Both the position numbers and the translations under genes were made by a program. A stretch of DNA of 64,000 nucleotides from the NCBI GenBank assembly GCA_025823825.1, contig GCA_025823825.1_4720.1. One strand, 5' to 3'. Each line of letters starts with the position of its first letter. Position 1 is the stretch's first letter. This document shows positions 26,433 to 64,000 of this stretch, in pieces. The DNA is from a phage. The notes below the pieces were generated by a model. The model ran no database searches, was not told the origin of the DNA, and worked only from the letters and a program-made list of their open reading frames with translations.

Positions 26433-26879
26433 TTAATTATTGCTGCTGGGGTTATCGCCCGGATTATATTCGATGCTGTAGGCGACGTCGCGGTCTGTCG
26501 TATGAACGACAAGCGTGACGGGGAAATCATAATGCGCGGTTTTGTCTCGAACGAACGGGGTAAAGAGATCCGTATAACGTATTAAGTCTTCCCTGGTGTA
26601 ATCGGAAGGGAAGAAGGCATCGATGGTTATTGAATCTTCATAGAGGCGTATGATCAGCTTATCCAGAAGGTTGCTATATTGGTTAGCTGGGGTGACGTTC
26701 AGGTGACAGAAGTCACCGTCTTCTGCTTCTCGCAATACCCATACCGTGGTATCCTGTAACGTATTTTCAAGGATCTCGAAAATGCAGTTTGCTGTAAGTC
26801 TTAGTTTATTTGTTACTTCATGGTTAGGGGAATAATGCTCACGAATGTTTTTCACTGCGTCTTTGATAGAGAAAGTCAT
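26433..26879 (-). CDS. small hypothetical protein, paralog family A (149 aa from internal ATG)
   Basis: Internal ATG (MTFSIKD) with AAAGGAG 9 nt upstream; C-terminal motif HYDFPVTLVVH...EYNPGD shared with 28869, 29394, 28099 and 31238 genes. Confidence 0.6.
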   Translation of the reverse strand: MTFSIKDAVKNIREHYSPNHEVTNKLRLTANCIFEILENTLQDTTVWVLREAEDGDFCHLNVTPANQYSNLLDKLIIRLYEDSITIDAFFPSDYTREDLIRYTDLFTPFVRDKTAHYDFPVTLVVHTTDRDVAYSIEYNPGDNPSSNN

Positions 26880-26892
26880 TGCTGCTGCTCCT

Positions 26893-27186
26893 TTAAAAGA
26901 TATCAAGCCATGAGGATGGAGGAACCAGTTCGCTGGTAAAGTAATCGCCACTGATACCACTATCATCAAAGTGACGTTCGTTGTAACACTGGACGAGCTT
27001 ACCTCCACGTTCTTTCTGATACCATCCAAGGATACTATTAAGACCTCTGTCCACGCATTCGAATGCTTGAGTAATAACATCCTCAACGACGGAGGCTGCC
27101 GTGGGACCATTGAATAGACGATCTAAGCGCTTTTTCATCGATTTGGTTTTCTCGTTCATGATTTCTTTTCCTGTTATAATCGGCAT
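26893..27186 (-). CDS. small hypothetical protein (97 aa)
   Basis: ATG start; RBS candidates inside adjacent hairpin arm (GGAAGGG) or internal AGGAAAAG before a second ATG. Confidence 0.55.
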   Translation of the reverse strand: MPIITGKEIMNEKTKSMKKRLDRLFNGPTAASVVEDVITQAFECVDRGLNSILGWYQKERGGKLVQCYNERHFDDSGISGDYFTSELVPPSSWLDIF

Positions 27187-27190
27187 ACAA

Positions 27191-27222
27191 CCCTTCCCCG
27201 GCCTTGACGGCTAGGGAAGGGG
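27191..27222. repeat. GC-rich extragenic hairpin element, degenerate copy (CCCTTCCCC...GGGAAGGGG)
   Basis: Imperfect stem, flanked by GGCATACAA...CTATGC. Confidence 0.45.
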
Positions 27223-27235
27223 CTATGCTACGTTG

Positions 27236-27634
27236 TTATGCTTCGCAATCAGCTGAAGGCGTCGCGCCTTTCTTACCAGCGATACGCCAAATCCGACACG
27301 CTGGGTAATGGTTAACCTCTAGAGAGCAAGGAATGTTATATTTCTCTTCCAGCGCATAAAGACATTTCGTTAGCTGCTCCAGCGCGTTCTCGTCGTGTCG
27401 TAACGCGTGGTGACCTAATCGATGTTGGTCGTTCTTTATATACGCCTCGAAGAGAACATGTTGGCGATGTACGCTGACGTTTACAGCCTCGAGTATAGCT
27501 TGGTCGAGCATACGACTAAAGCACATCAACGAGTCAGATACGTTTTCTCGCTTAACCAGATCGATCATGGCGGGAATATACGAATGGTCGATGTTATCGA
27601 TGACCGCTTTAGCGACGGAATCAGCAACGTTCAT
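27236..27634 (-). CDS. small hypothetical protein, paralog family B (132 aa from internal ATG; track start is GTG)
   Basis: N-terminus MNVADSVAKAVIDNIDH aligns with MSIVESIVKAVNDNIDH of 27671-28066; shared C-terminal EEKYNIP(C/F)SLEVN. Confidence 0.65.
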   Translation of the reverse strand: MNVADSVAKAVIDNIDHSYIPAMIDLVKRENVSDSLMCFSRMLDQAILEAVNVSVHRQHVLFEAYIKNDQHRLGHHALRHDENALEQLTKCLYALEEKYNIPCSLEVNHYPACRIWRIAGKKGATPSADCEA

Positions 27635-27670
27635 CTTTTTAATCCCTAGTTTGTTATTGATCACGTATAT

Positions 27671-28066
27671 TTACTCTTTGACGTCAGTTGTCGTTTCGAC
27701 ATGCTTCTCACTACTGACGTACCAGAGCAGGTACGTTGGGAAAAGATTGACCTCTAAGCTAAATGGGATATTGTATTTCTCTTCCATTTTGCAGAGATGT
27801 TCTTTAAGTAAATTTCTCGCGTCTCTGTCACCACGAACAGAGTGCCAGTCTAGTTCTTTGTTCTCCTTTACCAGGATCTCTACGATGATACGTTGCTCGT
27901 GAACCTCGGTTTTCACAGCGGCAAGTAAATCGCTGCTATCAAAACGGGTAAAACGAATGTATGAACCAGGTGTTTTTTCTTGTTTAATAATATCGATCAT
28001 GGTAGAAATGCGCGGATGATCGATGTTGTCGTTAACAGCTTTAACGATGGATTCTACAATGCTCAT
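27671..28066 (-). CDS. small hypothetical protein, paralog family B (131 aa)
   Basis: ATG with AAGGA RBS; tandem duplicate of 27236-27634. Confidence 0.7.
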   Translation of the reverse strand: MSIVESIVKAVNDNIDHPRISTMIDIIKQEKTPGSYIRFTRFDSSDLLAAVKTEVHEQRIIVEILVKENKELDWHSVRGDRDARNLLKEHLCKMEEKYNIPFSLEVNLFPTYLLWYVSSEKHVETTTDVKE

Positions 28067-28098
28067 TTTTTATCCTTAATGTTATCGATTTGGAAATA

Positions 28099-28866
28099 TT
28101 ACTTATTTTTGCTTTCTTTATAGACAGTTGTTACCCACGATGGGAAAGCCGGATGGAAACAGAGCGTGAACGTAACTGTCGTATCGTATTTAAACGCACA
28201 GTTCACTAACCGGGTATCTAACGTTTTCCTTAATCCGTCATCATCGTTATCGATGATGGTCATATCTCTTAATATCCCAAGCACGTTAACGCCATCGGGT
28301 GTCTGGGTTACGACAAGTCGTCGTAATGGCCCGCATGTATAGTCACGTACAAATCCTTTCTTCGGGTCCGATACCCTGTTTAACGCATCGTGATTTTTGA
28401 TGAATTCATCGGCGATACAATAGGTTTGTTCCCTTGCTTTATCGGGATCGTATTCTGCTAATAGTTCCTTCGTGTCGAACGTTATCATGTTATTATCATT
28501 CGATTCAGAAGGGAAACATAAAACTAAACGAACAGGGTATTCGTATTGATCTGTTCTTGTTTCGAAAGCATTAGCTAGACACGGCTTGTATGCCTTTGCG
28601 TCGACATTGTCCAAACATGGATGCAATAATGCATGAATAACGGCACCATCGTCAGTTAAACCGAATTCCAGAAATTGTACCCTATCAGTATCCGCTACGG
28701 TTTTCTGAAGGTACGCTTTACCGTTAACAATATCGGTATCCCACATATCGTCGTTTAACGATTCTTCAAACTTATCGAATATATGGTTTACGAGATTGAC
28801 GAGTTCATCAATACGGCACTGTTGGTTGAATTCGATTAATCGTTGAACTTTATCTTTGATAGACAT
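28099..28866 (-). CDS. hypothetical protein, family A-related with internally duplicated motif (255 aa)
   Basis: Contains two copies of the family A strand motif (QYEYPVRLVLCF and KYDTTVTFTLCF). Confidence 0.7.
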   Translation of the reverse strand: MSIKDKVQRLIEFNQQCRIDELVNLVNHIFDKFEESLNDDMWDTDIVNGKAYLQKTVADTDRVQFLEFGLTDDGAVIHALLHPCLDNVDAKAYKPCLANAFETRTDQYEYPVRLVLCFPSESNDNNMITFDTKELLAEYDPDKAREQTYCIADEFIKNHDALNRVSDPKKGFVRDYTCGPLRRLVVTQTPDGVNVLGILRDMTIIDNDDDGLRKTLDTRLVNCAFKYDTTVTFTLCFHPAFPSWVTTVYKESKNK

Positions 28867-28868
28867 GA

Positions 28869-29327
28869 TTACCCATTAGCTCCTTCTTCGTCTGGAGAGT
28901 ATTCCATCGTGTAGAATTCATAACCATCGGAAAACTTGAGTGTTAATGTAATAGGGAAATCGCACGGCATAGCTGATTTCGTAAATGCGTTATTAGCAAC
29001 ATCGGCCAACCGACGTATAGCATCAGTCCCGCTGACGCTGAACGGTAGTTGTATGTTGATAAGGATGCGGTGCTTGTAAACATGGAAAACAACGGTACTG
29101 TCAAGATAAACGCTATGGAACGGTATTGTTGGGATGCGTTCCACGATGGTAAAATACGTCCCGTCATTATCGCTATGTCCCACCGACCAAATATCGGATT
29201 TGCGTAGATTTTGTTTGAGAGATTCGATGCTTCGAGTGACGGTCTCATCAACAGGCGTGACGTAAGTGTCTTTATGCGAGTCGAAAAGTTCGTTGACGTT
29301 AGATTCGAATGAATACATTGTTGCCAT
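28869..29327 (-). CDS. small hypothetical protein, paralog family A (152 aa)
   Basis: ATG with GAGGTAG RBS; C-terminal PCDFPITLTLKFSDGYEFYTMEYSPDEEG. Confidence 0.7.
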   Translation of the reverse strand: MATMYSFESNVNELFDSHKDTYVTPVDETVTRSIESLKQNLRKSDIWSVGHSDNDGTYFTIVERIPTIPFHSVYLDSTVVFHVYKHRILINIQLPFSVSGTDAIRRLADVANNAFTKSAMPCDFPITLTLKFSDGYEFYTMEYSPDEEGANG

Positions 29328-34692: not shown

Positions 34693-34788
34693 ATCCACTC
34701 CGATGCGGTAAATGTCTACTAGCTCTCATAATCTATTGAAGAAACTACCGGCTTACGCCAACTTAGATTAATCAGGAGTAACCATCCC

Positions 34789-35262
34789 ATGCCAGTTTCA
34801 TCCAAACCAAGAAAAAAATCAGTAGGAAAACCGAAAGCTCAGGAAACAACAGCAATTCGTTGGGACGAGTTACGTGAACCTATCGAAAACTGCGAATTGT
34901 TATTGGGCACCCTGGGTGCGGCTATTTACCAAGCGACGCAGCCCTGTCGTTTACGATTAACCCAAAACAAACGTGATGAGTTCGTTGCGTTATCAACAAG
35001 CACGAATAAAGATCTGACCGAACTTCAAACCGAGTTGACGACGATCAAGAACTCCATTACGCCGATGTACGGTAAAGAAGTCGATGAACAAAGTATTCTG
35101 TTACAGTACAACTACGGGATGTCGTTAATGAACATCCTGGAACGCGCATCCGATATTCTGCGTCCTGACGTTGCACGCCTGAGCCAACTGCGTGTTGAAG
35201 GGATGGAGAACCAGATCCGATTCGCTAACAGTGTTAAATCTCAAGGAGCCACCGAAGCATGA
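34789..35262 (+). CDS. hypothetical protein (157 aa), basic N-terminus
   Basis: ATG with AGGAGT RBS; ATGA overlap with next gene. Confidence 0.7.
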   Translation: MPVSSKPRKKSVGKPKAQETTAIRWDELREPIENCELLLGTLGAAIYQATQPCRLRLTQNKRDEFVALSTSTNKDLTELQTELTTIKNSITPMYGKEVDEQSILLQYNYGMSLMNILERASDILRPDVARLSQLRVEGMENQIRFANSVKSQGATEA

Positions 35263-36944
35263 GCGAACAAGAAAAAGAAGTCGTGACGAATCAGGAAGCC
35301 ACCGAACGTTCAGAGTCGTCCGTTGAAACTACGATTCCGGCAAGTTCCGAGCCGGTTGGTTCCGCACAGCAGGAAAGTAAAGACGAAGTCAGCACGACTA
35401 AAGAAGATGTAGTGGCTCCAGAAGCAACCCGTGAAGAAGAACCATCACATCCACCGCTAATCGATTTCTCGAAGGCGACGATACGTTTCCAATGCGAAGA
35501 CATTCGTCCTAAGAGCCCGAAGAAAACAAAACGCCAGCCGTTGGTGTTACCGTTATATTCTCCGCGTGTACAGACAACGTATTACCGGGAATACATCAAC
35601 GAAGCAATGGATACCGTACAAGCCATTGTCGCTCAACGCGGTAAACCGACAGACGAACAGTTTGATAAATTCAGTAAAGCGGTGGTGCAATCGGTTGCTG
35701 ATGGACAATATCATCCGCGTGGTCCAGCTCACGATCGTGCGTTGGAACGTAAGGGCAGTCAGTGGACTAACGTGCCCGTAGACTCATCGGGTGTTGGTCG
35801 CGTTATTCCTGGCATCCCGCAACCGAACCATATTCCTGATGATGTCGAAGCGCCGCTGACAGGAACCGATGCGATCTATTTTGCCATCCGTAATACGAAA
35901 TCAGGTGCGCCTGCGGTAATGCCGTTATGGCATAGCGGTATTAAGCTGCAGTTTAATCCGCCGTCAAATGAACGTGTTGCAATTATGCACGAACGTATTG
36001 CTCGCGATAAAATCCTGGGTGGACGTGATAGTACCGGCTTCCTGTTTTCGGCAACCTCGATTATCACCATGAAGCACGCAATCGAATTAGCATTAGAATG
36101 CTGCTACATGGCCAACGTACCTAACCTGGATATACAGCGTTTGAAAGACATTATTCCGGTTACCGATGTTCCAGCGTTATTGTTGAACGTGTTGGTAACC
36201 ATGTATCCGTACGGATATCCTTACGTACAGACCTGCTATCAGAATCCAGAAACCTGCGACTATCGTGTCGAAGATACCGTAAGCTTTGCGAAACTCTATC
36301 AAGTTGACAACAGCGCAATAACCAAACGTATGCGACAGATCATGACCGAAGGTCCGGTCATGACAGATGAACTTTTGCGTGAGTATGCAAACGAACTGGG
36401 TGAAACAAACTCCCGTACGCTGGATCTGTCCGACAACGGTTCTGTTATCATTGAGCTTGAAGTACCGAAGATCTCACGACAAATCGCCATGGGCGAACGC
36501 TGGTTAAGCGATACCCTGGAAGATCTGCGTGATATTCTATCGCGTCCGTCAATGACCGAAGAAGAGCGTGATCGTGTTATTCGTGAACGTCAGTTCTATA
36601 GCTGGATGCGTCAGTATGATGCGTGGATCAAATCGATGCACGTGTCAGTAAACGGTACCATGCGTCGTGTAAGCGATGCGGATACAGCAACGGTATTAGC
36701 GCAGCTGTCTCGTGATAGCGATCTTCGTGAACGCTATATCGATGGGTTGATGCAATTCATCGGTGATTCGACGATTGCGCTTGCAGCAATGCCTGCCTGG
36801 AAATGTCCGAAATGTAATGCCGATATTGCTGACAATCTGCGTGACCAGAAATACTACGATCTGATTGCTTTGGATGTACCCCAGCTTTTTTTTACCCTAA
36901 ACTCCGTCCAATCTCTTCAGGAGGGGATGGACGCGGTATTCTAA
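35259..36944 (+). CDS. hypothetical protein (561 aa); U8 slippery tract 17 codons before its stop
   Basis: ATG start coupled to upstream gene; C-terminal region contains CTT TTT TTT ACC (see finding). Confidence 0.8.
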   Translation: MSEQEKEVVTNQEATERSESSVETTIPASSEPVGSAQQESKDEVSTTKEDVVAPEATREEEPSHPPLIDFSKATIRFQCEDIRPKSPKKTKRQPLVLPLYSPRVQTTYYREYINEAMDTVQAIVAQRGKPTDEQFDKFSKAVVQSVADGQYHPRGPAHDRALERKGSQWTNVPVDSSGVGRVIPGIPQPNHIPDDVEAPLTGTDAIYFAIRNTKSGAPAVMPLWHSGIKLQFNPPSNERVAIMHERIARDKILGGRDSTGFLFSATSIITMKHAIELALECCYMANVPNLDIQRLKDIIPVTDVPALLLNVLVTMYPYGYPYVQTCYQNPETCDYRVEDTVSFAKLYQVDNSAITKRMRQIMTEGPVMTDELLREYANELGETNSRTLDLSDNGSVIIELEVPKISRQIAMGERWLSDTLEDLRDILSRPSMTEEERDRVIRERQFYSWMRQYDAWIKSMHVSVNGTMRRVSDADTATVLAQLSRDSDLRERYIDGLMQFIGDSTIALAAMPAWKCPKCNADIADNLRDQKYYDLIALDVPQLFFTLNSVQSLQEGMDAVF

Positions 36945-37006
36945 TCGATCCGCGATACGGGTTACATGACGGACAACTTGTTCGTAATGATGAAAAAATC
37001 TGGGAA

Positions 37007-37366
37007 TTGCTGTTAGCGCGTAAAGGCGATGGTGGCATGAAACTGAACATCGAAATGGGTATTGCGTACGATACCATGTTTGGCTTGTACGATCGTGTTA
37101 ACGACTGGACGCCGTTGAAATGGGTTGCTCAGCACCCCGCTGAAGATCCCTGGGACAGATTAGGGATTAAGCCCTTAATCGAGGATTATGTTCGATTCGG
37201 TATTAAAGAGTTCATGACGTTGGATGCGTTTTTACAAGCACCGTATCCTTACGCGCAAACGGTACTCAAAATCGCACAAGACGAACTGCGGAAACGTAGT
37301 GCGGTACTGGACGACGATGAGGACAAGTTACGACGAGAAGAAGAACGTTTACGAAACGGAAAATAA
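37007..37366 (+). CDS. hypothetical ORF, possibly expressed only as a -1 frameshift extension of 35259-36944
   Basis: Track start is TTG with no RBS; frame is open back to 36845 with no ATG until 37037. Confidence 0.4.
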   Translation: MLLARKGDGGMKLNIEMGIAYDTMFGLYDRVNDWTPLKWVAQHPAEDPWDRLGIKPLIEDYVRFGIKEFMTLDAFLQAPYPYAQTVLKIAQDELRKRSAVLDDDEDKLRREEERLRNGK

Positions 37367-37367
37367 A

Positions 37368-37877
37368 ATGGCGAGATTTACCAGTTTGATTGGGTTGGAT
37401 ATTTGGGAAACACCGGCTGACGTTCGGGTTATTCCTGTCAACACCGTCGGTGTGATGGGACGCGGTCTTGCCAAACAGGCAGCCGATCGCGTCCCCGGTC
37501 TTCTTGAAGCGTACCGTAAGCAATGTCAAGATGGGTTTAAGGTGGGCGAAGTCGTATCGTATCAACACGGCGATAACGATCAACTCACCTACGTGTTGTT
37601 TCCATCAAAATCGGATTGGCGTGAAAGAACACGACGCGAGTATATCGTTAACGGATTACTGGCGTTAAAAGCGTGGTTATTGGAGCTTCAGTTCGAAAGA
37701 GACGGCTTCTCATACCAGCGTCCGGCTGAACCGCTGATTGTCGCAATTCCTCCGGTTGGTTCTGGTTGCGGTAATATCGGTTATGGACAATCTGAAACAA
37801 TCCAGCCTCAATGGGTACGCGCACAAATCAAACAGTATCTTGCCACCGTACCGAACGTTCATTTCTACTTGTTCTAA
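37368..37877 (+). CDS. putative macro-domain (ADP-ribose binding/hydrolase-like) protein (169 aa)
   Basis: ATG 1 nt after upstream TAA; N-terminal VRVIPVNTVGVMGRGLAKQAADR resembles the macro-domain Gly-rich ADP-ribose-binding loop. Confidence 0.5.
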   Translation: MARFTSLIGLDIWETPADVRVIPVNTVGVMGRGLAKQAADRVPGLLEAYRKQCQDGFKVGEVVSYQHGDNDQLTYVLFPSKSDWRERTRREYIVNGLLALKAWLLELQFERDGFSYQRPAEPLIVAIPPVGSGCGNIGYGQSETIQPQWVRAQIKQYLATVPNVHFYLF

Positions 37878-37893
37878 CGCAAAGGTAACATAA

Positions 37894-37925
37894 CCCTCCT
37901 CCTTCCCTCACGGGTTGGAGGAGGG
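37894..37925. repeat. GC-rich extragenic hairpin element, inverted orientation (CCCTCCTCC-TTCCCTCACGGGTT-GGAGGAGGG)
   Basis: Loop is the reverse complement of AACCCGTGAGGGAA; between convergent macro-domain gene and 37943-38317. Confidence 0.6.
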
Positions 37926-37942
37926 CTTATGCTGTTATGCTA

Positions 37943-38317
37943 TTAATGTTCGTTCCAGATGGCATCTTCCGGTGGAACAATAGGATCTTTCTTCGGCATT
38001 GATGGCACTTCATGACGATGCTTACGGAACTGCCTATCAATAACCTCACGAAGCCGGTACGCGTCAACCCAGGTTGATTTATTGAACAGCTCCAACGTCA
38101 CAGTTAATCGTGTTCTTGACATTGAATAGCTTTTCTTCGCAATCAAATTGGGATAATTCAGTTGAGCGAACCACGCACGTATTTGTGCTTCGGTAAAAGC
38201 GATGCTGTAATAACTAAGTTTACCGTCATTAAAATCGTGCGCGTGGGTGTAACGTCCAGCGTAACGCCAGACAAGATGCACATTCAGATCGATCCATGGT
38301 GGGGTGGTATCAGCCAT
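37943..38317 (-). CDS. hypothetical protein (124 aa)
   Basis: ATG with GAGGG RBS. Confidence 0.65.
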   Translation of the reverse strand: MADTTPPWIDLNVHLVWRYAGRYTHAHDFNDGKLSYYSIAFTEAQIRAWFAQLNYPNLIAKKSYSMSRTRLTVTLELFNKSTWVDAYRLREVIDRQFRKHRHEVPSMPKKDPIVPPEDAIWNEH

Positions 38318-38326
38318 GTGTTACCC

Positions 38327-38896
38327 TCAACGATTCTTCATCACTTTACCCAGGCTTTCGATATTATCCCAAAAGCGATTTTTACTTGGCGCATCGCCGA
38401 CGATAACCGACATCAAATCGCGACGTTCACGACTGATGATGCCCTGTGATTTCCAGATCACCATCGTCCAGCAAGCAGCCAGAACGAACAGATGATTAAT
38501 ACTCGGTTTGGTTTGCGCGATGAACGCGAGCCATGCCCAGATACCGGTATATACTATCGTCACTAAAAAGAGCGAGATTGTTGCAACGACAACAACGAAG
38601 TTTTGGACAGCGGGTTGATTCGCGTTATCATGAATAGCGGTAAGATCAGGAAGGTTACCTTCAACTGAACTCGTTTCATCGATTTCCAATTCTTCGATTT
38701 CTTTTCGTGTGTCGGGAGCTAATCCGGCATCATCAAGATGCTTTTTTAACCGCTGTATACTTAATCGTTGACCGATAGGAATGTTGATGTTGTCGTAACT
38801 ATTAAGCGCATCAACCAGGGAGCGCCCGTCAACGAGAACCAAGCTCGCAGTACCCATTGTCTGCGGTTTTATTTTGTAAAGGTCTTTTACTTTCAT
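38327..38896 (-). CDS. hypothetical membrane protein (189 aa), two predicted transmembrane helices
   Basis: ATG with GGAGGTGG RBS; hydrophobic stretches FVVVVATISLFLVTIVYTGIWAWLAFIA and LFVLAACWTMVIW. Confidence 0.65.
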   Translation of the reverse strand: MKVKDLYKIKPQTMGTASLVLVDGRSLVDALNSYDNINIPIGQRLSIQRLKKHLDDAGLAPDTRKEIEELEIDETSSVEGNLPDLTAIHDNANQPAVQNFVVVVATISLFLVTIVYTGIWAWLAFIAQTKPSINHLFVLAACWTMVIWKSQGIISRERRDLMSVIVGDAPSKNRFWDNIESLGKVMKNR

Positions 38897-38917: not shown

Positions 38918-41530
38918 TTAAGCGTCTGGTGTAAAATCAAAAGGAATGTCCGTACGAATGATATCATAACGTTTTCCTAGGAAATAAAACTCTTCGGGAA
39001 CCTGGCCGGGAATAATGCTATCGCCGATGAACTGCGGATACGCCCAGATGTACTGAGTGAGTCCTTCGAACTTATCCAGGTTATTTGCGTGGTTACCCAT
39101 GATACGTTTCCAGAGTTCGCGTTTATACGGTGTTTTAACATCGAATCCATAAAGCGGTGCAAGATCTTCACCAGGAACAAATCCCAGGTAATAATGGATC
39201 TGACTAACCGGGAAACCAAGCGTATCTCGCGGAATGGTGATCGCTTGCTCAGCCTTGGTGACATGCGTTTCAATAATCCAGTCGTAGCACTCCGAATAGA
39301 ACCGATCGAATTTCTCTGGGTTATACCACGCTTTGGGAAGATTCAGTTTCTCCGTGAACGCGTTCGACATGATCGTCGGCAAGAACGGAAGAACGCCGGT
39401 TTTGATCTGCGTGTATTTCGATTTTACCCGGTTAACCAAATTCCAGCAACTGTATCCTAATTGGTCGTTACAAAACTCAACGTAGAGATCGTAGTCACCA
39501 CCGGATAACGGGTTGTTAATATCACCGATGTCTGCGGCGTATTTGTTGGGATATCGGTTATTGAAAGCCAGTTTGGTTTGGTAATCGTAGATACACGGTT
39601 TGTTGTTCGCTGTATTGATCCACCACCAGGGTTCACCTATTTGCACACAAATGTCCTGGACATGGGGGTAGATGATATCAGCAAACGCGGTTAACACGTC
39701 CCCTAACCACGCCATCGCCTGTTGGTTACATGGAGACAGCAACCAGGACGGTGGTGTATATCCGGTTGCGGCGATGTTTCCTTCCCAATCCTGCTGCGCC
39801 CACTCGAACGGGCATGCTGTACTCATCAATTCGTAACTTAAACTGATGGTGACAGAGAAATGGTGTTTTGCAGCATATGCGGCGAAAGCTTCATGCCACG
39901 CGATACAGGGTGGATTTAATACATCCGTGGTGTTCACCAGTAACTTACCCGCACTTGGCGTCCAGACAGTATCGTAGAAATGCGACATTCCAACATAATG
40001 CACTAATTCATCTTGATACCCCGCATAAACCAGGTTTTCAAATACGCGCTCCGGCGTGATGTTGTAATGGTCATCGTAAGCGGTTATCGCACGAAGTTCG
40101 TGTGGTGTACAATGATGGCGATTAACCGTCATTTCTTGATACACCCCATCGATAGGAAGAATCTCGAGGGTTAAACCGAGGTCGATTGGCGTTTCCAGAT
40201 AGGTCGTTTCAGTCGCATCTTCCTTATAATGTCGAGAACTCATGCTGAACATCAACGACGTTACCGATTCGAGTTCGATAGGCTCGTCAGCATAGAACCC
40301 CGCCATTGCGTCATTGAAATCGATCGTTACGATTGCGCTTCTACCGTCTTCAGAGACATCGGTGGCGTATCGGGTTAATGAGATATACTGACGGCTATCG
40401 TCTTTGTGTACGATGGTTAGAACCGGCGGGTTTTCGGTATCTGCAAAGTTACGCTGATCGCCAGTAAACGTGATCTTCGCTTTAAAGATCAAACCGAATA
40501 ACGACGTCATGGGATCATACGCAATACAACCGTGATCCAGCGTATCCGTTGTCCGCCATTCTATCCCGACCAACCCGTTAGCGGTATGGCATCGCATATA
40601 CGCATTAAGGACCATGTCTTCACTGACAACCGCGAAGTTCTCTGTTGACTGACCGTTGATAATCCAATACATCGGTTGCCAGAGGTTACGCGTACCTTTT
40701 GCGTAGCGGTAGGTTGGTGCGCCTTTAGGGTTGCCATTATTGAGATGGAATACGGCAGTACCTTGATAATGGTCGTTCGTATTAATCGGAACACTGTAAG
40801 CATCACCGAGATCCGTACGTTCGACCTTCGTGACTGTTGCGTTTTCAAATAACCCACGTAGCGCCGGTAAACCGATATCTTCAGGCGCGTTTTCTCGACG
40901 AATCGCATCCGCGATGCGGTGGGCTAAGGCAGGGTAAATGACCTCACCCTGCTGTAGGTTTGCAAGACCTACAAAGCGATCGGGGTCGATGCTAGCAATC
41001 AATAACTCGACATCACCCTTCGTTCTATCGTCGTTAAGATATTTCAGTCCGGTAAGGTCAAGATGCTGAATAAGCGACAACAGGTTGTATTTACGGTTTT
41101 CAACAGTTAGTACAAGATCGCCTGCCCAAACCAAACTTCCCTCATCCGCTGTTACTTTAACGGATTGTCGGCCTGTGGTAGACGTTGTTGTCGTTTTATT
41201 TAATTGTCCTTGTAGGAAGTCGGTTGCGAGGTCAAAGGCAATGCCGTAACGGTCAGCGACCGCTTGCATGATTTCACGTAACTGGGTATCTTCTTCAATG
41301 ATAATCTTGACAGGTATTCCCAAGAACGCTTTAGCGAGGTCTCGTTTAACCAACGAGACGAATACGGATTTGTAGTATCGACTTCCATCTTTCCCTTTAA
41401 AAAGAATGGAGGTTGTTTCGGGTGCCGATAGAACACGTGCAAATTCAACATCGTCGAAAGTAAGAGAAAGTCCGTTTTTCTCGTTGGTTAATCTTAGTAT
41501 TTCATTTTGCGCGGTTTCATGTAACTTCAT
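38918..41530 (-). CDS. putative receptor-binding protein/tailspike (870 aa) with shared N-terminal anchor domain
   Basis: N-terminal 110 aa (RDLAKAFLGIPVKII...ADRYGIAFDL) conserved with N-termini of 47425-47952 and 48108-49862 genes; divergent C-terminal region. Confidence 0.7.
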   Translation of the reverse strand: MKLHETAQNEILRLTNEKNGLSLTFDDVEFARVLSAPETTSILFKGKDGSRYYKSVFVSLVKRDLAKAFLGIPVKIIIEEDTQLREIMQAVADRYGIAFDLATDFLQGQLNKTTTTSTTGRQSVKVTADEGSLVWAGDLVLTVENRKYNLLSLIQHLDLTGLKYLNDDRTKGDVELLIASIDPDRFVGLANLQQGEVIYPALAHRIADAIRRENAPEDIGLPALRGLFENATVTKVERTDLGDAYSVPINTNDHYQGTAVFHLNNGNPKGAPTYRYAKGTRNLWQPMYWIINGQSTENFAVVSEDMVLNAYMRCHTANGLVGIEWRTTDTLDHGCIAYDPMTSLFGLIFKAKITFTGDQRNFADTENPPVLTIVHKDDSRQYISLTRYATDVSEDGRSAIVTIDFNDAMAGFYADEPIELESVTSLMFSMSSRHYKEDATETTYLETPIDLGLTLEILPIDGVYQEMTVNRHHCTPHELRAITAYDDHYNITPERVFENLVYAGYQDELVHYVGMSHFYDTVWTPSAGKLLVNTTDVLNPPCIAWHEAFAAYAAKHHFSVTISLSYELMSTACPFEWAQQDWEGNIAATGYTPPSWLLSPCNQQAMAWLGDVLTAFADIIYPHVQDICVQIGEPWWWINTANNKPCIYDYQTKLAFNNRYPNKYAADIGDINNPLSGGDYDLYVEFCNDQLGYSCWNLVNRVKSKYTQIKTGVLPFLPTIMSNAFTEKLNLPKAWYNPEKFDRFYSECYDWIIETHVTKAEQAITIPRDTLGFPVSQIHYYLGFVPGEDLAPLYGFDVKTPYKRELWKRIMGNHANNLDKFEGLTQYIWAYPQFIGDSIIPGQVPEEFYFLGKRYDIIRTDIPFDFTPDA

Positions 41531-42305: not shown

Positions 42306-43022
42306 TTAAATTGAAGTTAGATATTGTTTACCTCCAACAAACGACGTTAACCAATTACCTGAAACAAGTTGCGATGCCCAGCCAGGCACTGCCCTACCGT
42401 TCTGGCTCATCACGTTACCTGCCCATCCCGGAAAACCCGGTCGGAAAATATATACTTGAATATGTGTTAAAGCGTTATCATTACCACTGCCAACAGCAAC
42501 GTTACGACTCCCAGATGACGGGAAATATTCTTTTAAGAACAGAGGATCGGTTGCTAATAAAGATGCGGGCCAAGGGTTCGCGGATGCATCAACATCGAAT
42601 TCGGTCCATCGCCATTTACGTCCCGTGTCGAACCATGTCGATGTACCACCACCCCTCACGGCAAGATTGCGCGCATCACGGACATTATAAATTGATTCGA
42701 TGTTACGCCATCCACCTTTTGCAGCGTTTGCTGCATAGCAAACCGCATTACCACCATTCTTCTTCTCGTAAACGGTTCGTTTGATATGAACACGGTCGAT
42801 GAACGCTTCACCGTATTTGTTGACGAGCGTTTGTGCGATATCACGAAGATCGTGCATGTGAAAAGCGATGTCTTCGTTATGGAACCATGTTGTCTGGTTC
42901 CAGACGGTACCGTTTGGTTCGGCACACATCGATCGGATATTGTTGCGTTGATTAATCGCGATAAAACCCATTGTATACCTCGTTCCTATTCTCAAAAAGG
43001 AAATTTCATACGATGACGCCAT
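42306..43022 (-). CDS. hypothetical protein (238 aa from internal ATG), paralog of 41553-42194
   Basis: Internal ATG (MASSYEISF); the upstream residues of the track ORF are a translated hairpin element whose arm GGAGGAGC serves as SD. Confidence 0.7.
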   Translation of the reverse strand: MASSYEISFLRIGTRYTMGFIAINQRNNIRSMCAEPNGTVWNQTTWFHNEDIAFHMHDLRDIAQTLVNKYGEAFIDRVHIKRTVYEKKNGGNAVCYAANAAKGGWRNIESIYNVRDARNLAVRGGGTSTWFDTGRKWRWTEFDVDASANPWPASLLATDPLFLKEYFPSSGSRNVAVGSGNDNALTHIQVYIFRPGFPGWAGNVMSQNGRAVPGWASQLVSGNWLTSFVGGKQYLTSI

Positions 43023-43026
43023 AGCA

Positions 43027-43056
43027 GCTCCTCCTTCCCTTACGGGTTGGAGGAGC
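43027..43056. repeat. GC-rich hairpin element whose arm provides the SD of 42306-43022
   Basis: Minus-strand reading GCTCCTCC-AACCCGTAAGGGAA-GGAGGAGC-TGCT-ATG. Confidence 0.6.
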
Positions 43057-43064
43057 ATACTTAA

Positions 43065-43619: not shown

Positions 43620-44072
43620 TTACTTTTTGAGCGCTTTAAGTTCTTCTTCCAACGCTTCCACTTTTGCCGTAAGCTTCTGTACTTGTTTGATTAATGGAAC
43701 CACCAAACGTTCGTACATAACACCTTCAGCGACGAGTCCGTTAGAAGAAACGATAGCGGGGTCATCTTCTTCGGTTGCATCACGCCAGTGCACGTACTGC
43801 GGTGCGATCTCACCAACCTCTTCAGCAATCAACCCATACCAACCCCAATCCTTGTTGTCTGCTTCACATGTGGAACGATACCAAACAGGACGCATCTCCA
43901 ATACTTTATCCGCTTGTTCATCCGTGATATTCTCGATATCTTTCTTATAGCGACGCGACGACGTTGAACGAAACACATTGTTGATCCCAGAAACAGGACT
44001 GATATACATGTTAGCCCCGCTGGTTGTAGTGCTAATGTCCCATACCGCAAATCCGCCGTTACTCCCATTTTT
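43620..44072 (-). CDS. S74-type intramolecular chaperone-like domain, open frame out of phase (+1) with upstream tail fiber gene; probable frameshift-fused fiber C-terminus or homopolymer artefact
   Basis: SSRRYKKDIENI...WYGLIAEEV...PQYV...YERLVVPLIKQVQKL...LEEELKALKK matches the auto-processing chaperone pattern; frame open from 44072, first ATG only at 44009; A7 run at junction. Confidence 0.55.
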   Translation of the reverse strand, partial: KNGSNGGFAVWDISTTTSGANMYISPVSGINNVFRSTSSRRYKKDIENITDEQADKVLEMRPVWYRSTCEADNKDWGWYGLIAEEVGEIAPQYVHWRDATEEDDPAIVSSNGLVAEGVMYERLVVPLIKQVQKLTAKVEALEEELKALKK

Positions 44073-47000
44073 TTACGATCAATGTGTTGGCAATAATGTC
44101 CAGGTTATTGTCGTAACCGGTTAATTGTCTTTCCGTTACATAACTGGATAGATTGACCGAGTAGTTCTTACTGTTATAACAACGACGCCATCCTGGGCTG
44201 TTGGTACTGCCATTATAGTTGTCGTAGCTATAAATGAACTCGGAGTTGGTTTTCGCACCACTGACGGAAGACGTGGTTGCGGTCGTAACACGGATGGTAT
44301 AGTTTGTCATCCCGAAGCTAACGACCTCGATAACAGCACCAGCCAGAGGGATAATACCGCACTTGGTTTCACTGTCTGGGATGTATGCGCTGTCGGCAGC
44401 TGCGAAGGAGCAACGTGCGACCCAGGCGCGGGTATTGAATGCACCTTGGTTTTGCAACAACGTGATAAACGATGAGGTCGTAATCGAGCTGTTATTATCA
44501 CCGGTGATCAACCAGCCGGTCGGGCATGCGGTTGCGCCAACGTTTTTCGCTGTTAACGTGATGTTCTGCGATCCGTCGAAGGCTACGCCACTGATAGTGC
44601 GCGCAGTCTGCAGTTTCGTCGCCGTTGCTGCGTTCCCTGATGTGTTCTGGTTCCCTGCGGCGTTAACACCCGGCAGATTGATATTCGCACTACCGTCGAA
44701 AGACACCCCACCAATGGTGCGGGCGGTTTTCAGTTTTGTCGCCGTGGCGGCATTACCGGTCGTGTCTTGGTTACCGGTGGTGTTTACCCCAGGTAGGTTG
44801 ATATTGGCCGTTCCGTTAAATGAAACACCACCAATCGTCCGTGCCGTTTGCAACTTCGTTGCGGATGCCGCATTCCCCGTGGTGTTTTGGTTACCTGTTG
44901 TATTCACACCTGGGATACTATCCTTAGATGTGTAGATCTGTGCCCATTCCGACCAGTTCGCATCTGATGCATCACGACGCGAACGTAGGTAAGCTGGAGC
45001 GTGTGCGCCTGAAGTACCTGACCATCCAATAAGGATCTCACCTTCACCTACTGCGGTTGCTCCTTTAAGATGAACAACGTTACCGTAGGCTGTAGGGTAT
45101 CCGTTATTGTACGCTTCATACATCTGGATGCCCGTATTGCTGCCCTGGGTCGCATTAGCTAAAGCGGTGACTCGTCCCATGGAAGCGAGCACGTTAATGC
45201 TAAAGCTAATATCAGTTGTACCATCAAAGGCGACCCCATTAATCTTCCGTGCTGTTTGGAGTTTCGTGGCAGTAGCCGCATTACCAGAGGTACTCTGATT
45301 ACCTGCTTTGTTCACGCCTGGTAAATCAATGTTGGCGGTTCCATCAAAGGACACACCCCCTATGGTTCTCGCCGTCTGAAGTTTTGTTGCTGAACCGGCG
45401 TTTCCGGAAGTGCTTTGATTACCCGCCGCGTTAACACCCGGTAGGTTAATGCTAGCAGAACCATCAAAAGAAACACCACCGATTGTGACAGCCGTTTTCA
45501 ATTTCGTGGCTGTCGCAGCGTTACCCGTTGTATTCTGATTGCCAGCTGCATTGACGCCAGGTAATGCGATATCAGCTGTGCCATCGAACGCGACACCGCC
45601 TATTTTACGGGCGGTTTGTAGCTTGGTTGCTGTAGCGGCATTACCGCTGGTATTTTGCGTACCGGCTTTATTTACACCGGGAAGATCGATGTTAGCAGAA
45701 CCGTCGAAGCTGACGCCACCTATTGTTCTTGCGGTAGCGAGTTTAGTTGCTGTGGTTGCAGCATTACCAGCCTTTAACCATTCGCCCCATGGGCCATCCA
45801 CGCCGTTCCATGAAGCTGTTAAACTACGTACGTAAATATTTCCTGTACGTACGGTGTAACGCTGTGTTCCACCGAATTGCCCAGCTGGGAGCACTTCGAT
45901 GTAACCTACTGCGTTTGCTTCAGGGAAATTGTGGGCAGCATCAGCATTCGTTGACGTTTGTTTGGACCAAATACCCACAGACGCTTCAACCGGACCGTAG
46001 GTATTTAGATTCGCATCGGTGGGAAGCTGTCCTCGGAAACGTCGGAATAATGAAGCTGTTAACCCCAACGTTGTTTGCATCCCTTCAATGCTTGACTGCG
46101 ATAAAAGCGCCCGAGCTGTCGACGTGATAGCCGCTAAAGCAACCTTATCCGTACCGGTAAAATACGGGAATTTGTTTGCTGAAGTTGCTAAACCTGAAAG
46201 GGCGGTCAGTAATGCGTTAAGGGGTTGTTTCCCAGCCAGCGCGTTAGTTACTGTTGTTGCGAAATTAGGGTCGTTGCCTAAAGCTTGAGCCAGCTCATTA
46301 AGCGTATTTAGCGCTTCTGGCGACGAGTCGATCAGTGATGCGATAGCACGCATCACAAATTCCGTGTTGGCGATCTGTTGACTGCTATCGTTATCTGCAG
46401 CCGTAGGTGCTGCTGGGATACCGGTGAACACAGGGTTATTAAGATCTGCCTTGAGAGCGATGAGACGTCTAAGCGCTTCGACATCGACTTTCAGGTTTTC
46501 CCATCCGACGAGATAACCATCACCGGTTGTATGATAACGGTTGTACCAAAAATCACCATTGACACCGAAATAGAATATTCCTTTCTCTTCGTATTGTGGG
46601 CCGGAACTGTTCCGTGATGAGCTAATGTATTTTATTTCGATAAGGCCGTCGAATACCACTCCTGGGATGATTTTATTATTTCCAGCTGGCTGTGATACTT
46701 GGTACATCCCCGGGGTTGCGGCTTTAACCCACGTTAAGAATTCTGTTACTCCGGCGCTACCACTGAAATTCTTAACGTCGGTAAGTATCGCCCCATAACC
46801 GAACATACCGGGTAGAGCAACTCGTCCGCTGGTACGGTCACGAATATTTGATGCGACGACAGGCAGCTGTTTACGAACATTGTTAACCGCCTTAGGTGTG
46901 GCCGATTTTGTCTCGTCATCGCTATCGATGGCGTTGCTCAGGATGGTCAGTCCTCGAGTATTTGTGGTCGCATCAGGAAGAAACGCGTTATCCAACACCT

Positions 47001-47418
47001 TAAGTTGTACAGCGCTCGTGTTACTAACAACGAGATACATCTGACAGTTAAGAACGCTGGATGCACCTTCAGTAGGCACCGGCTTATATCTTTCCGGTGC
47101 GCTGCAAACAGCGATCAGAACACCCTGATCGTCATACAGACCGATTTCACGTACCCAGAATCCACCTTGGTTTACAGGAATAATACCCTCAACAATAATC
47201 CTGGTTGTGTCATCCGTATCGACACGGATATTAGCAACTTCCCCACGATAAACTTCGTGTACGAGCGCTGTTTGACCAACAGCCGGTGTCGGTATCGACC
47301 CGTTACCATCGCCAACAGCAAAATGTGTGATTTTTAGTTTCTCGCCACCAGGAAGTAGTGCGGCGGCGATACGTTCAGCGCCTTTATCGGTAATGACCGT
47401 TTTATATGTTGTACTCAT
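44059..47418 (-). CDS. tail fiber protein (1119 aa) with P2 gpH-like N-terminal domain and tandem 33-aa fiber repeats
   Basis: N-terminus TVITDKGAERIAAAL...ITHFAVGDGNG...GQTALVHEVYRG...GGFWVREIGLYDDQGVLIAV resembles the P2 gpH / lambda Stf fiber N-terminus (from memory); 8-9 repeats of TARTIGGVSFDGSANIxLPGVNxAGNQxTSGNAATATKLQ. Confidence 0.85.
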   Translation of the reverse strand: MSTTYKTVITDKGAERIAAALLPGGEKLKITHFAVGDGNGSIPTPAVGQTALVHEVYRGEVANIRVDTDDTTRIIVEGIIPVNQGGFWVREIGLYDDQGVLIAVCSAPERYKPVPTEGASSVLNCQMYLVVSNTSAVQLKVLDNAFLPDATTNTRGLTILSNAIDSDDETKSATPKAVNNVRKQLPVVASNIRDRTSGRVALPGMFGYGAILTDVKNFSGSAGVTEFLTWVKAATPGMYQVSQPAGNNKIIPGVVFDGLIEIKYISSSRNSSGPQYEEKGIFYFGVNGDFWYNRYHTTGDGYLVGWENLKVDVEALRRLIALKADLNNPVFTGIPAAPTAADNDSSQQIANTEFVMRAIASLIDSSPEALNTLNELAQALGNDPNFATTVTNALAGKQPLNALLTALSGLATSANKFPYFTGTDKVALAAITSTARALLSQSSIEGMQTTLGLTASLFRRFRGQLPTDANLNTYGPVEASVGIWSKQTSTNADAAHNFPEANAVGYIEVLPAGQFGGTQRYTVRTGNIYVRSLTASWNGVDGPWGEWLKAGNAATTATKLATARTIGGVSFDGSANIDLPGVNKAGTQNTSGNAATATKLQTARKIGGVAFDGTADIALPGVNAAGNQNTTGNAATATKLKTAVTIGGVSFDGSASINLPGVNAAGNQSTSGNAGSATKLQTARTIGGVSFDGTANIDLPGVNKAGNQSTSGNAATATKLQTARKINGVAFDGTTDISFSINVLASMGRVTALANATQGSNTGIQMYEAYNNGYPTAYGNVVHLKGATAVGEGEILIGWSGTSGAHAPAYLRSRRDASDANWSEWAQIYTSKDSIPGVNTTGNQNTTGNAASATKLQTARTIGGVSFNGTANINLPGVNTTGNQDTTGNAATATKLKTARTIGGVSFDGSANINLPGVNAAGNQNTSGNAATATKLQTARTISGVAFDGSQNITLTAKNVGATACPTGWLITGDNNSSITTSSFITLLQNQGAFNTRAWVARCSFAAADSAYIPDSETKCGIIPLAGAVIEVVSFGMTNYTIRVTTATTSSVSGAKTNSEFIYSYDNYNGSTNSPGWRRCYNSKNYSVNLSSYVTERQLTGYDNNLDIIANTLIVKKWE
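44540..45760 (-). repeat. in-frame tandem repeats of about 99 bp (33 aa) inside the tail fiber gene, two blocks
   Basis: Repeated peptide unit read in translation; coordinates back-calculated from protein positions, approximate. Confidence 0.7.
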
Positions 47419-48107: not shown

Positions 48108-49862
48108 TTATGCTGCTACATACCCAGGCCAACGTTCTCTTGGCCAGTTTGTTGCGCCCTGTCCAACGTTGTCCTTACCAGAAGTTACATTACTTACATC
48201 CCAACCACTAAGATCCTGGTTAAATGCGGTGTTGTTACGCATCATGAGGTCGATATTACGTAATGATTGGGTATTCCAGCCGGAAATGTCTTGGTTGAAT
48301 GCCGTGTTGTAAGCAAACATGTTAACAACGTTTTGTAATTTTGAAGTGTTCCAGCCGCTAATATCGCCATTGAACTGCATGTTCGAGAACATACTGCTAG
48401 CATCGATAAGACTATCTGTTTTCCAGTTAACCAGCTTGTTCTCATCAAGTGCGTTGCAACTACTGAACATGTAACTCATGTTGTTAACTTTGGATACATC
48501 CCATTTATCTAACCCGTTACCAACGAACTCGTAACAAGCTTGGAACATCCAGCTCATGTCGGTAACCTGGCACACATTCCATTTGCTAAAGTCGAGGTTG
48601 AGTTTTGCGCATCCGGAGAAAGTTTTATACATACTGGTGATACGACTAACATCCCATTCTTGAATGTTAGGATCATTAAGTATAGATAAGAATTGGAACA
48701 ATCCGTCTAACGACGTCCATTTCTCTGGAATACGGTTTGGTACTGTACGGAGCGATGAAAGGTTATTGGTTGACGGAGAGCGGAACATACCGTTATCCCA
48801 ATTTACGATTTCCGTAATGTTGTACCCACGGATCGTTTGGCGTCCATTACCATTATACACAGACCCTGTTGCAGTTATTGTATATTCGTTTGTATCAGCA
48901 TACGTATATTCAGCCTGTGTAGGCCACTCACCTATTACATCCCTATTCCCATCACCCCAGTCAATGGAAATATCTATCCAACCATCAAGATCTAGGGTAA
49001 CGGTCCCGCCATTGGTCTTCAGGATGTATTTACCTGCATTGTCGGTATAATAACAAACAATCATCGCACCGTACAGGTTACCAATTTGCCAATCATCCTT
49101 TTGAGTTACCGCGATTTGTGCTGTACCACGCTGTAAGAAAAGTACCGTACGGTTCTCGTCAGTCTGTAGTGCGGTTAGTGCTTGAGTCTTATCATCGTCG
49201 GTAATTTCACCGGCTTCCATTAAAGCACTTAACATTCTTTCGAAGTACTCGATAGGCAACTGAGGTCCTACCGACATATCAACTGATGGAACAGTGAGAT
49301 CATCCAATGCTGCTGCCGTTGCGAGGACTAATGATCCCTTGGCGGTGTCTGTTTCTTGGAGGTAACGCAGTCCCGTAATCTGGTACGCTTGAATGATTGT
49401 AATCAGATCCAGTGTATCGTTAATGACCTGTACTTGTAAATGTCCAGACCAAACATAGCTGCTTTCAGCAATCGGTAATTCGACCGACTGAATACCCGAC
49501 GTTTCAAAACTGATCTTCTTATTAAGATCGGCTTCCAGGAAATCAACAGCTAGGTCGAAATTTATACCGTACTTCTCAGCGATGGAATCTACAATGTTCC
49601 TGAAAGCAACATCGGTACTTACGATGAAACGTAACGGGATCCCGGTGAACGCGTTGGCAATATCTCGACGAACATACGTGAGCGACTGCTCGAAGAAATA
49701 AGGACTGTTATCTCCAGGTTTGATGGTTACCTGGCATACTTCAGGATGTTCAGCTGGAATGAAAGATTCGAATTTAACGTCGGTTTCCTTCAACGATAGC
49801 ATGTTCTTCCGGTTTACCAACGCCAGAAGATCAGCTTTCCACCCAGGATAAACTGTAGACAT
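48108..49862 (-). CDS. putative receptor-binding protein (585 aa): shared N-terminal anchor domain plus C-terminal DUF285/BspA-type repeats
   Basis: Internal ATG (MSTVYPGWKADLLALVNRKN) with GGAG RBS; C-terminal repeats ...MFxxxxxFNQDISGWNTxxxxNxxxMF... typical of the Mycoplasma DUF285 / BspA-like family. Confidence 0.7.
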   Translation of the reverse strand: MSTVYPGWKADLLALVNRKNMLSLKETDVKFESFIPAEHPEVCQVTIKPGDNSPYFFEQSLTYVRRDIANAFTGIPLRFIVSTDVAFRNIVDSIAEKYGINFDLAVDFLEADLNKKISFETSGIQSVELPIAESSYVWSGHLQVQVINDTLDLITIIQAYQITGLRYLQETDTAKGSLVLATAAALDDLTVPSVDMSVGPQLPIEYFERMLSALMEAGEITDDDKTQALTALQTDENRTVLFLQRGTAQIAVTQKDDWQIGNLYGAMIVCYYTDNAGKYILKTNGGTVTLDLDGWIDISIDWGDGNRDVIGEWPTQAEYTYADTNEYTITATGSVYNGNGRQTIRGYNITEIVNWDNGMFRSPSTNNLSSLRTVPNRIPEKWTSLDGLFQFLSILNDPNIQEWDVSRITSMYKTFSGCAKLNLDFSKWNVCQVTDMSWMFQACYEFVGNGLDKWDVSKVNNMSYMFSSCNALDENKLVNWKTDSLIDASSMFSNMQFNGDISGWNTSKLQNVVNMFAYNTAFNQDISGWNTQSLRNIDLMMRNNTAFNQDLSGWDVSNVTSGKDNVGQGATNWPRERWPGYVAA

Positions 49863-50063
49863 AAGCACTCCAATCATGGGGGCGAACGCCCCCCATCAGT
49901 TAAATGATCGTTTACGTCGCGTAAGGGTAATATAATTGCTGTGAGCCATATCAGAAGTTCACAACATTCTGAATCATAAGGTTACGTCGTTGGAAACAAA
50001 CCGATACAGATTCTTCATAGAACATTGAGATGATGGAAACCTAATTCGTACCATGAAAGCCGC

Positions 50064-62215: not shown

Positions 62216-64000
<1,785 letters not shown>

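Follow-up and report, generated by a model that had tools for sequence, protein, structure and literature searches.

A stand-alone DarG-type macrodomain encoded by a Goslar-like jumbo phage is a probable AdfM-type enzyme acting against DarT2

The macrodomain gene lies in a 64,000-nt stretch of phage DNA (contig GCA_025823825.1_4720.1 of NCBI GenBank assembly GCA_025823825.1; hereafter the window), and the features of its locus are collected in Table 1. The gene is a plus-strand open reading frame running from ATG to TAA, stop codon included, and encodes 169 aa; its ATG at 37368 is one base past the TAA of the upstream co-oriented gene. The string quoted in the original prediction, VRVIPVNTVGVMGRGLAKQAADR, corresponds to residues 19-41 of the protein. 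Two alternative in-frame ATGs would give longer products, namely 186 aa from 37317, the version called by RefSeq for Goslar gp083, and 217 aa from 37224, the version of NCBI entry P0001 from a Salmonella assembly. The N-terminus M-A-x-F is common to the window protein, PhiKZ gp104, PhiPA3 gp108 and a 47%-identical metagenomic homolog, and the last of these starts at the ATG equivalent to 37368. Based on this N-terminal conservation, the starts at 37224 and 37317 were rejected and 37368 is the best-supported start, so the originally predicted coordinates of the reading frame stand as the best gene model. Of the codons in which the gene differs from its Goslar ortholog, 19 are synonymous and 5 non-synonymous; the resulting dN/dS of 0.07 indicates strong purifying selection.

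Table 1. Features of the macrodomain locus, with positions in the window.
Feature	Position	Strand	Evidence or remark
Three co-oriented upstream genes (157, 561 and ~109 aa), orthologs of Goslar gp080-gp082	34789..37366	+	
adfM-type gene, stand-alone DarG2-like macrodomain, ortholog of Goslar gp83	37368..37877	+	Open reading frame, profiles, AlphaFold2/Foldseek, 97% amino acid identity
NTVGVMGRG (codons N25 to G33), conserved Asn and first Gly-rich ADP-ribose-binding loop	37440..37466	+	Alignments
S80-K81-S82-D83-W84 codons; K81 is the catalytic Lys equivalent (Taq K80, PhiKZ K78, TARG1 K84)	37605..37619	+	
Insertion 1 (~residues 112-124)	37701..37739	+	Alignment A2; low model confidence
G131-S-G133-C-G135, second Gly-rich (diphosphate-binding) loop	37758..37772	+	Profile alignment to 5M31, alignment A2
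Insertion 2 (~residues 142-149, SETIQPQW), just 3' of the second Gly-rich loop	37791..37814	+	Alignments A1 and A2
G+C-rich hairpin separating adfM from the convergent leftward gene 37943..38317	37889..37931		MFE -31.1 kcal/mol

Together with the three genes upstream, adfM forms a rightward four-gene block. The orthologs of Goslar gp080-gp082 and gp084-gp085 gave no Pfam matches and hit only PHROGs of unknown function, and no DarT, ART, NADAR or Nudix partner gene adjoining adfM was detected when the six neighbouring proteins were searched against Pfam and PHROGs. The block is kept in L006, a 47%-identical member of the Goslar-like clade found in a public sequencing run, where rightward genes of 150, 536, 119 and 169 aa adjoin leftward RNA-polymerase genes. 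When seven proteins of the locus were compared by tblastn with the PhiPA3 gp103-119 region and the PhiKZ-like phage KTN4, only the macrodomain was matched, and gene position therefore gives no support for orthology across genera. On its downstream side the gene is followed by a hairpin with a folding energy well outside that of shuffled sequences (z = -5.4). Goslar has an annotated terminator at the same site, and a similar sequence follows the gene in L006; the hairpin is a probable bidirectional transcription terminator. The convergent leftward genes past it comprise two small genes of unknown function and then a gene for a virion/tail-type protein (38918..41530). A sigma-70 promoter scan of positions 34500-38400 returned 1 site, against a mean of 6.5 in shuffled sequence, and none upstream of adfM, which carries no information, given that chimalliviruses transcribe with RNA polymerases of their own.

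The 3-kb region around adfM is 97.1% identical to Escherichia phage vB_EcoM_Goslar, and the whole window is collinear with Goslar positions ~55,100 to 123,500 at 95-97% identity, save for a few indels and swapped modules. Goslar is described as a nucleus-forming jumbo phage of the Chimalliviridae (PMC9891218, PMC9365700). The macrodomain protein itself is 97% identical to Goslar gp83 (gp083, YP_009820768), which is annotated as 'macro domain-containing protein, weakly similar to ORF104 of phiKZ', and none of the five differences between the two (E40D, R54Q, T58K, E69D and H117Q) affects a catalytic residue. In addition, a 99%-identical copy (P0001), encoded on an 809-bp contig, has been entered under Salmonella enterica serovar Muenchen as a hypothetical protein, and a 98%-identical cluster contains 232 member sequences from public sequencing runs, an indication that Goslar-like phages often occur as contaminants or passengers in sequencing data of enterobacteria.

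Elsewhere in the window, several genes differ from their Goslar counterparts. The DNA-polymerase gene is a continuous 583-aa reading frame (24582..26333, +) that covers phrog_3011 end to end, whereas the Goslar gene is split by a 1.78-kb insertion (L002 27186-28968) holding the NUMOD1/HNH endonuclease gp069. The Rfam model for group I introns (RF00028) also has a full-length match in the Goslar insertion, scoring 44.7 bits (E=1.5e-9), slightly less than its gathering score of 50, and the downstream polymerase exon is unannotated in that genome; the window carries the intron-less allele of an intron/homing-endonuclease polymorphism. The tail-fibre gene (44059..47418, -) encodes 1119 aa with a tail-collar N-terminus, and its distal part is only 64-87% identical to Goslar gp090. 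Across a 50-bp gap lies a separate 129-aa reading frame (43620..44009, -). It contains an intramolecular-chaperone domain (Peptidase_S74), aligns with the very C-terminal end of long tail-fibre PHROGs and has a Caudo_TAP tail-fibre-assembly gene as its counterpart in Goslar. This difference looks like a swap of the receptor-binding tip together with its chaperone. A 589-aa protein (48108..49877, -) with an N-terminal DUF7941 and C-terminal DUF285 repeats stands in place of the 1198-aa Goslar tail protein gp092; it shares DUF7941 with the 870-aa protein at 38918..41530, and probably represents a second exchange of a host-range module on a common anchor domain. A 250-aa reading frame (42306..43058, -), with no Pfam or PHROG match, lies within ~720 bp that are absent from Goslar. 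Small leftward genes for proteins of 225, 142, 131, 255 and 152 aa, without family matches, fill 26433..29327 (-), a stretch ~1.3 kb longer than, and patchily similar to, the Goslar gp070-gp074 region; the 142-aa and 131-aa proteins look like tandem paralogs, since they have the N-terminal motif SxVKAVxDNIDH in common. At the right end of the window, a gene for an NAD-dependent DNA ligase (62529..64000, -), with OB, zinc-finger, HhH and BRCT domains, runs off the edge; it is 92.5% identical to the Goslar ligase, and the window lacks Goslar gp120 (708 bp, hypothetical), which in Goslar stands between gp119 and the ligase.

The resemblance to macrodomains, originally noticed from the Gly-rich N-terminal loop, goes well beyond chance in Pfam, NCBIfam, PADLOC and PDB searches. 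The Pfam Macro profile (PF01661) matched above its threshold (E=1e-5; 25.9 bits, gathering cut-off 22), aligning protein residues 23-141 with profile positions 3-113 of 118. The best matches in NCBIfam, PADLOC and the PDB were all to the macrodomain half of DarG: NCBIfam DarG NF048014 matched with E=8.4e-23 and 81.2 bits over profile positions 7-146 of 338, PADLOC DarG matched with E=4.1e-22 over positions 8-143 of 329, and the PDB sequence search was led by the Thermus aquaticus DarG macrodomain (5M31/5M3E, E=5.7e-15), followed by M. tuberculosis DarG (5M3I) and the Thermosipho DarTG fusion (7OMU). A profile built from alignment A1, which comprises the window protein and 12 homologs (13 sequences), matched three DarG entries of the PDB with E-values of 6e-42, 9e-42 and 3e-35, compared with 4e-14 for human TARG1 and 6e-5 for Poa1p.

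Structure prediction gave the same placement. The word-indexed homolog search returned 15 proteins, so the alignment behind the prediction is shallow; the AlphaFold2 model obtained from A1 has a mean pLDDT of 87.3 and a pTM of 0.85, with weak parts only at residues 111-120 (pLDDT 58) and 131-150 (pLDDT 60-79). The model displays the macrodomain fold, a mixed beta-sheet sandwiched by helices. Foldseek comparison with the PDB yielded 218 matches with E<=0.001, and the best 50 of these comprise macrodomains and designed proteins (OSH55 series) that carry a serine hydrolase annotation. The top four (5M31, 5M3E, 5M3I and 7OMU) are all DarG, with TARG1 next. The three isolated DarG macrodomains superimpose with target-normalised TM-scores of 0.86-0.88 and an rmsd of 1.8-2.3 A; the values for 7OMU, a 376-residue DarT-DarG fusion, are 0.33 and 4.9 A. 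By profile and by predicted structure, the window protein is thus a 169-aa stand-alone macrodomain of the DarG type. It is not a DarG antitoxin, though it is like the DarG macrodomain in predicted action: the NCBIfam score lies far below the cut-off of 250 bits for the full-length DarG equivalog, the match is confined to the macrodomain half, and darT is missing from the neighbourhood. The protein is an orphan that corresponds to only the N-terminal 40% of the DarG profiles.

Database labels point to another kind of activity, that of an ADP-ribose-1''-phosphate phosphatase (Poa1p/Appr-1-p type) clearing a by-product of RNA repair or tRNA splicing. The phrog_335 label is that of a phosphatase, the Goslar RefSeq note cites cd02901 Macro_Poa1p_like, and such roles have been discussed for the Macro domains of jumbo phages (Iyer et al. 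2021). However, these labels are inherited names rather than tests. Poa1p is a distant relative by the A1 profile, its Foldseek matches rank 18th or lower with an rmsd above 5 A, which does not place the protein among Poa1p-like macrodomains, and the nearest relative with a characterised function acts as a DNA ADP-ribosyl glycohydrolase (PMC13309987). A phosphatase role is accordingly highly improbable.

The residues on which DarG activity depends were mapped using the T. aquaticus enzyme, whose PDB chain numbering is offset by 10 from that of the mutagenesis study (Jankevicius et al. 2016, PMC5179494). In that study, K80A inactivates TaqDarG, and N22A, K29E and G119E strongly impair it. The alignments place Taq N22 at N25, K29 at R32, T79-K80 at S80-K81 and W83 at W84, and the second loop G117-A-G119-N120-G121 at G131-S-G133-C134-G135; N23 and K78 of PhiKZ AdfM likewise align with N25 and K81. 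N25, K81, W84, G131 and G135 are invariant in homolog alignments A1 and A2. G133 is invariant in A1 and replaced by Ala in PhiKZ gp104 (A2), and G28, M30, G31 and G33 of the first loop are also invariant in A1. The only notable substitution is Cys134 for Taq Asn120, a position occupied by Leu in many homologs; in TaqDarG this Asn hydrogen-bonds ADP-ribose. The catalytic residues of the DarG macrodomain are therefore kept in the window protein, which backs the original prediction of an ADP-ribose hydrolase.

The same residues bear on the nature of the substrate. TARG1 is known mainly as a protein Glu-ADPr hydrolase (PMC5179494), and as the next-best structural and sequence relative after DarG, with the catalytic Lys in common, it raises the possibility that the window protein removes ADP-ribose not from DNA but from proteins, either those of phage or host that host ART toxins have modified or the targets of a phage ADP-ribosyltransferase. 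This is quite unlikely. DarG is favoured over TARG1 by ~28 orders of magnitude with the A1 profile, and W84 is invariant, whereas TARG1 has Ala at the corresponding position, that of Taq W83, which has been proposed to stack on the modified thymine (PMC5179494). Moreover, the PhiKZ ortholog acts on DarT2-modified DNA (PMC13309987), and no ART gene was found among the scanned window genes or in the Goslar annotation of the region.

The PhiKZ ortholog belongs to a family named AdfM (anti-DarT factor macro) by Morgan et al. (2026, Cell Reports, PMC13309987), homologs of which occur in about half of chimalliviruses. Its members include PhiKZ gp104, PhiPA3 gp108, Asesino gp217 and Goslar gp83, and the last is among the four phage sequences aligned with T. 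aquaticus DarG2 in Figure 1B of that study. Purified PhiKZ AdfM takes ADP-ribose off a DarT2-modified oligonucleotide, an activity reduced by the N23A substitution, and PhiKZ AdfM fully rescues E. coli from DarT2 toxicity (PMC13309987). P. aeruginosa isolates carrying DarTG2 restrict PhiKZ AdfM mutants, in which phage DNA is ADP-ribosylated and replication and packaging are impaired, and, when fused to GFP, the AdfM proteins from PhiKZ, PhiPA3 and Asesino localise to the phage nucleus (PMC13309987). In an independent antisense screen, PhiKZ104 was likewise recorded as a macro domain protein, and its knock-down had a mild effect in the standard host, which lacks DarTG (PMC12571901); any benefit of the gene is therefore host-dependent, which fits a counter-defence role. 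The family, its function and its Goslar ortholog are thus already known from the literature, and the enzyme activity, the rescue from DarT2 and the host-range phenotype are published for the PhiKZ ortholog only (PMC13309987).

A BLASTP comparison of the window protein with PhiKZ gp104, translated from the sequence printed in the methods of PMC13309987, gave E=7e-25 and 31% identity over residues 1 to 162 (96% of the length). The window protein combines homology to PhiKZ gp104 with DarG2 macrodomains as its nearest solved and curated relatives, retention of the Asn and Lys, an orphan architecture and a chimallivirus genome, which places it in the AdfM family. Homologs were found by tblastn in 167 phage records, which fall into three groups: Pseudomonas phages like PhiKZ, PhiPA3 and 201phi2-1; jumbo phages of ~220-250 kb infecting Salmonella, E. 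coli or Erwinia (such as SPFM17, SEGD1 and EarlPhillipIV); and phages of ~70-79 kb infecting E. coli and Shigella (such as vB_EcoP_SU10 and SGF2). Kuravirus-like podophages are among the homolog carriers.

The originally proposed reversal of DarT-type ADP-ribosylation is well supported by the characterisation of AdfM as an anti-DarT2 factor of chimalliviruses, with Goslar gp83 listed among its members (PMC13309987). The accompanying alternative, processing of NAD-derived signalling products, gained no specific support. Under this alternative, the protein would hydrolyse or sequester soluble molecules such as O-acetyl-ADP-ribose or the ADPr-based signals of TIR or SIR2 systems; some metagenomic homologs are automatically named 'O-acetyl-ADP-ribose deacetylase', and a general proposal of this kind exists for jumbo-phage Macro domains (Iyer et al. 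2021). However, the catalytic Lys and the Trp are DarG-type features, and the phenotype of the PhiKZ ortholog is explained by DarTG2 alone (PMC13309987), leaving this the least probable of the readings considered. The wide gap between DarG and the other macrodomain subclasses, the DarG-type Trp and the experiments on PhiKZ AdfM together disfavour the phosphatase, the TARG1-like and the NAD-signal readings alike.

What was established here for the window protein (its fold and family, the retained catalytic residues, its orthology to Goslar gp83 and the purifying selection on its gene) points to an AdfM-type orphan antitoxin-like enzyme that strips DarT2-made ADP-ribose from phage DNA, a reading to which a probability of roughly 85% is assigned. 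By analogy with PhiKZ AdfM, the protein would have the same activity, with an E. coli DarT2 as its presumed opponent. E. coli DarTG systems are described as ADP-ribosylating single-stranded DNA (PMC7003065), and in a DarTG2-carrying E. coli the freed DarT2 would modify thymidines of single-stranded phage DNA. The two Gly-rich loops of AdfM would then bind the ADP-ribose, and K81, helped by N25, would cleave the thymidine-ribose bond with W84 placed at the thymine; once the DNA is cleared of ADP-ribose, phage replication and packaging could proceed. Since it has no C-terminal DarT-binding domain and no darT neighbour, AdfM would act purely as an eraser ('orphan antitoxin').

Because the phage is a nucleus-forming chimallivirus with its DNA inside the nucleus, the window protein is probably imported there via the PicA pathway, as suggested by analogy with its relatives. 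The import-recognition segment of PhiKZ AdfM spans aa 77-95 (PMC11087766) and corresponds to window residues 80-98 (SKSDWRERTRREYIVNGLL). The sequence is not conserved between the two, a divergence that is expected for phage-specific import. Several observations nevertheless count against the AdfM reading, namely the ~31% identity to the tested PhiKZ enzyme, the two poorly modelled insertions near the ligand-binding loop, the replacement of N120 by Cys134, the diverged import segment and the weakness of the PhiKZ gp104 knock-down without DarTG.

The two insertions, both of which are low-confidence parts of the model, differ in their distribution. Insertion 1 is located between a long helix and the strand preceding the second Gly-rich loop; it is shorter in PhiKZ and PhiPA3 AdfM and absent from bacterial DarG macrodomains and non-chimallivirus metagenomic homologs (A2), and chimallivirus AdfM proteins may have it as a shared derived character. 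Insertion 2 is confined to a Goslar-like clade consisting of the window protein, P0003, P0004, P0006 and P0007 (A1 and A2). The clade-specific 8-residue insertion 2, the longer insertion 1 and the Cys in place of the ADPr-contacting Asn120 form the basis for a further reading, in which the AdfM of the Goslar clade is more than a PhiKZ-type AdfM in another host. These changes could alter the substrate, for example towards a different DarT2 sequence motif, another ADP-ribosylated base or RNA, or they could serve a Goslar-specific nuclear import or translocation. Such a specialisation is unlikely.

The case of AdfM shows that a phage nucleus is incompletely shielded by its protein shell: to reverse the DNA ADP-ribosylation caused by the host toxin DarT2, chimalliviruses still require an enzyme that is dedicated to this task and concentrated in the nucleus. 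The copy in the window extends the Goslar gp83 allele to a second E. coli phage, 95-97% identical to Goslar, and would offer a convenient E. coli model for the PhiKZ-based mechanism, although it opens no new question.

Among known systems, the strategy of supplying antitoxin activity without the toxin is also described for the orphan NADAR-type antitoxin-like enzymes that T4-like phages use against DarTG1 (PMC11825919) and for an antitoxin mimic of a Vibrio phage (PMC11481870); as described in these reports, however, both factors counter other DarTG systems and belong to phages that are not nucleus-forming. Human TARG1/C6orf130 (4J5S) belongs to the same macrodomain subclass and has its catalytic lysine at the same position, and is set apart from the window protein by weaker similarity and by Ala in place of the Trp. 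The DarG (DarG2) proteins of T. aquaticus, M. tuberculosis and Thermosipho africanus have the same fold, the catalytic Lys, the Asn, the Trp and the GxGxG loop, whereas the window protein is phage-encoded, lacks the C-terminal DarT-binding half and an adjacent darT, and carries two insertions. It departs from PhiKZ and PhiPA3 AdfM in its longer insertion 1, the extra 8-aa insertion 2, a different gene neighbourhood and the lack of their C-terminal PPW(I/M)(D/E)S tail. It resembles these AdfM proteins in being a stand-alone DarG2-like macrodomain of ~160-170 aa from a nucleus-forming jumbo phage, with the conserved Asn and Lys, the MA-F N-terminus and insertion 1.
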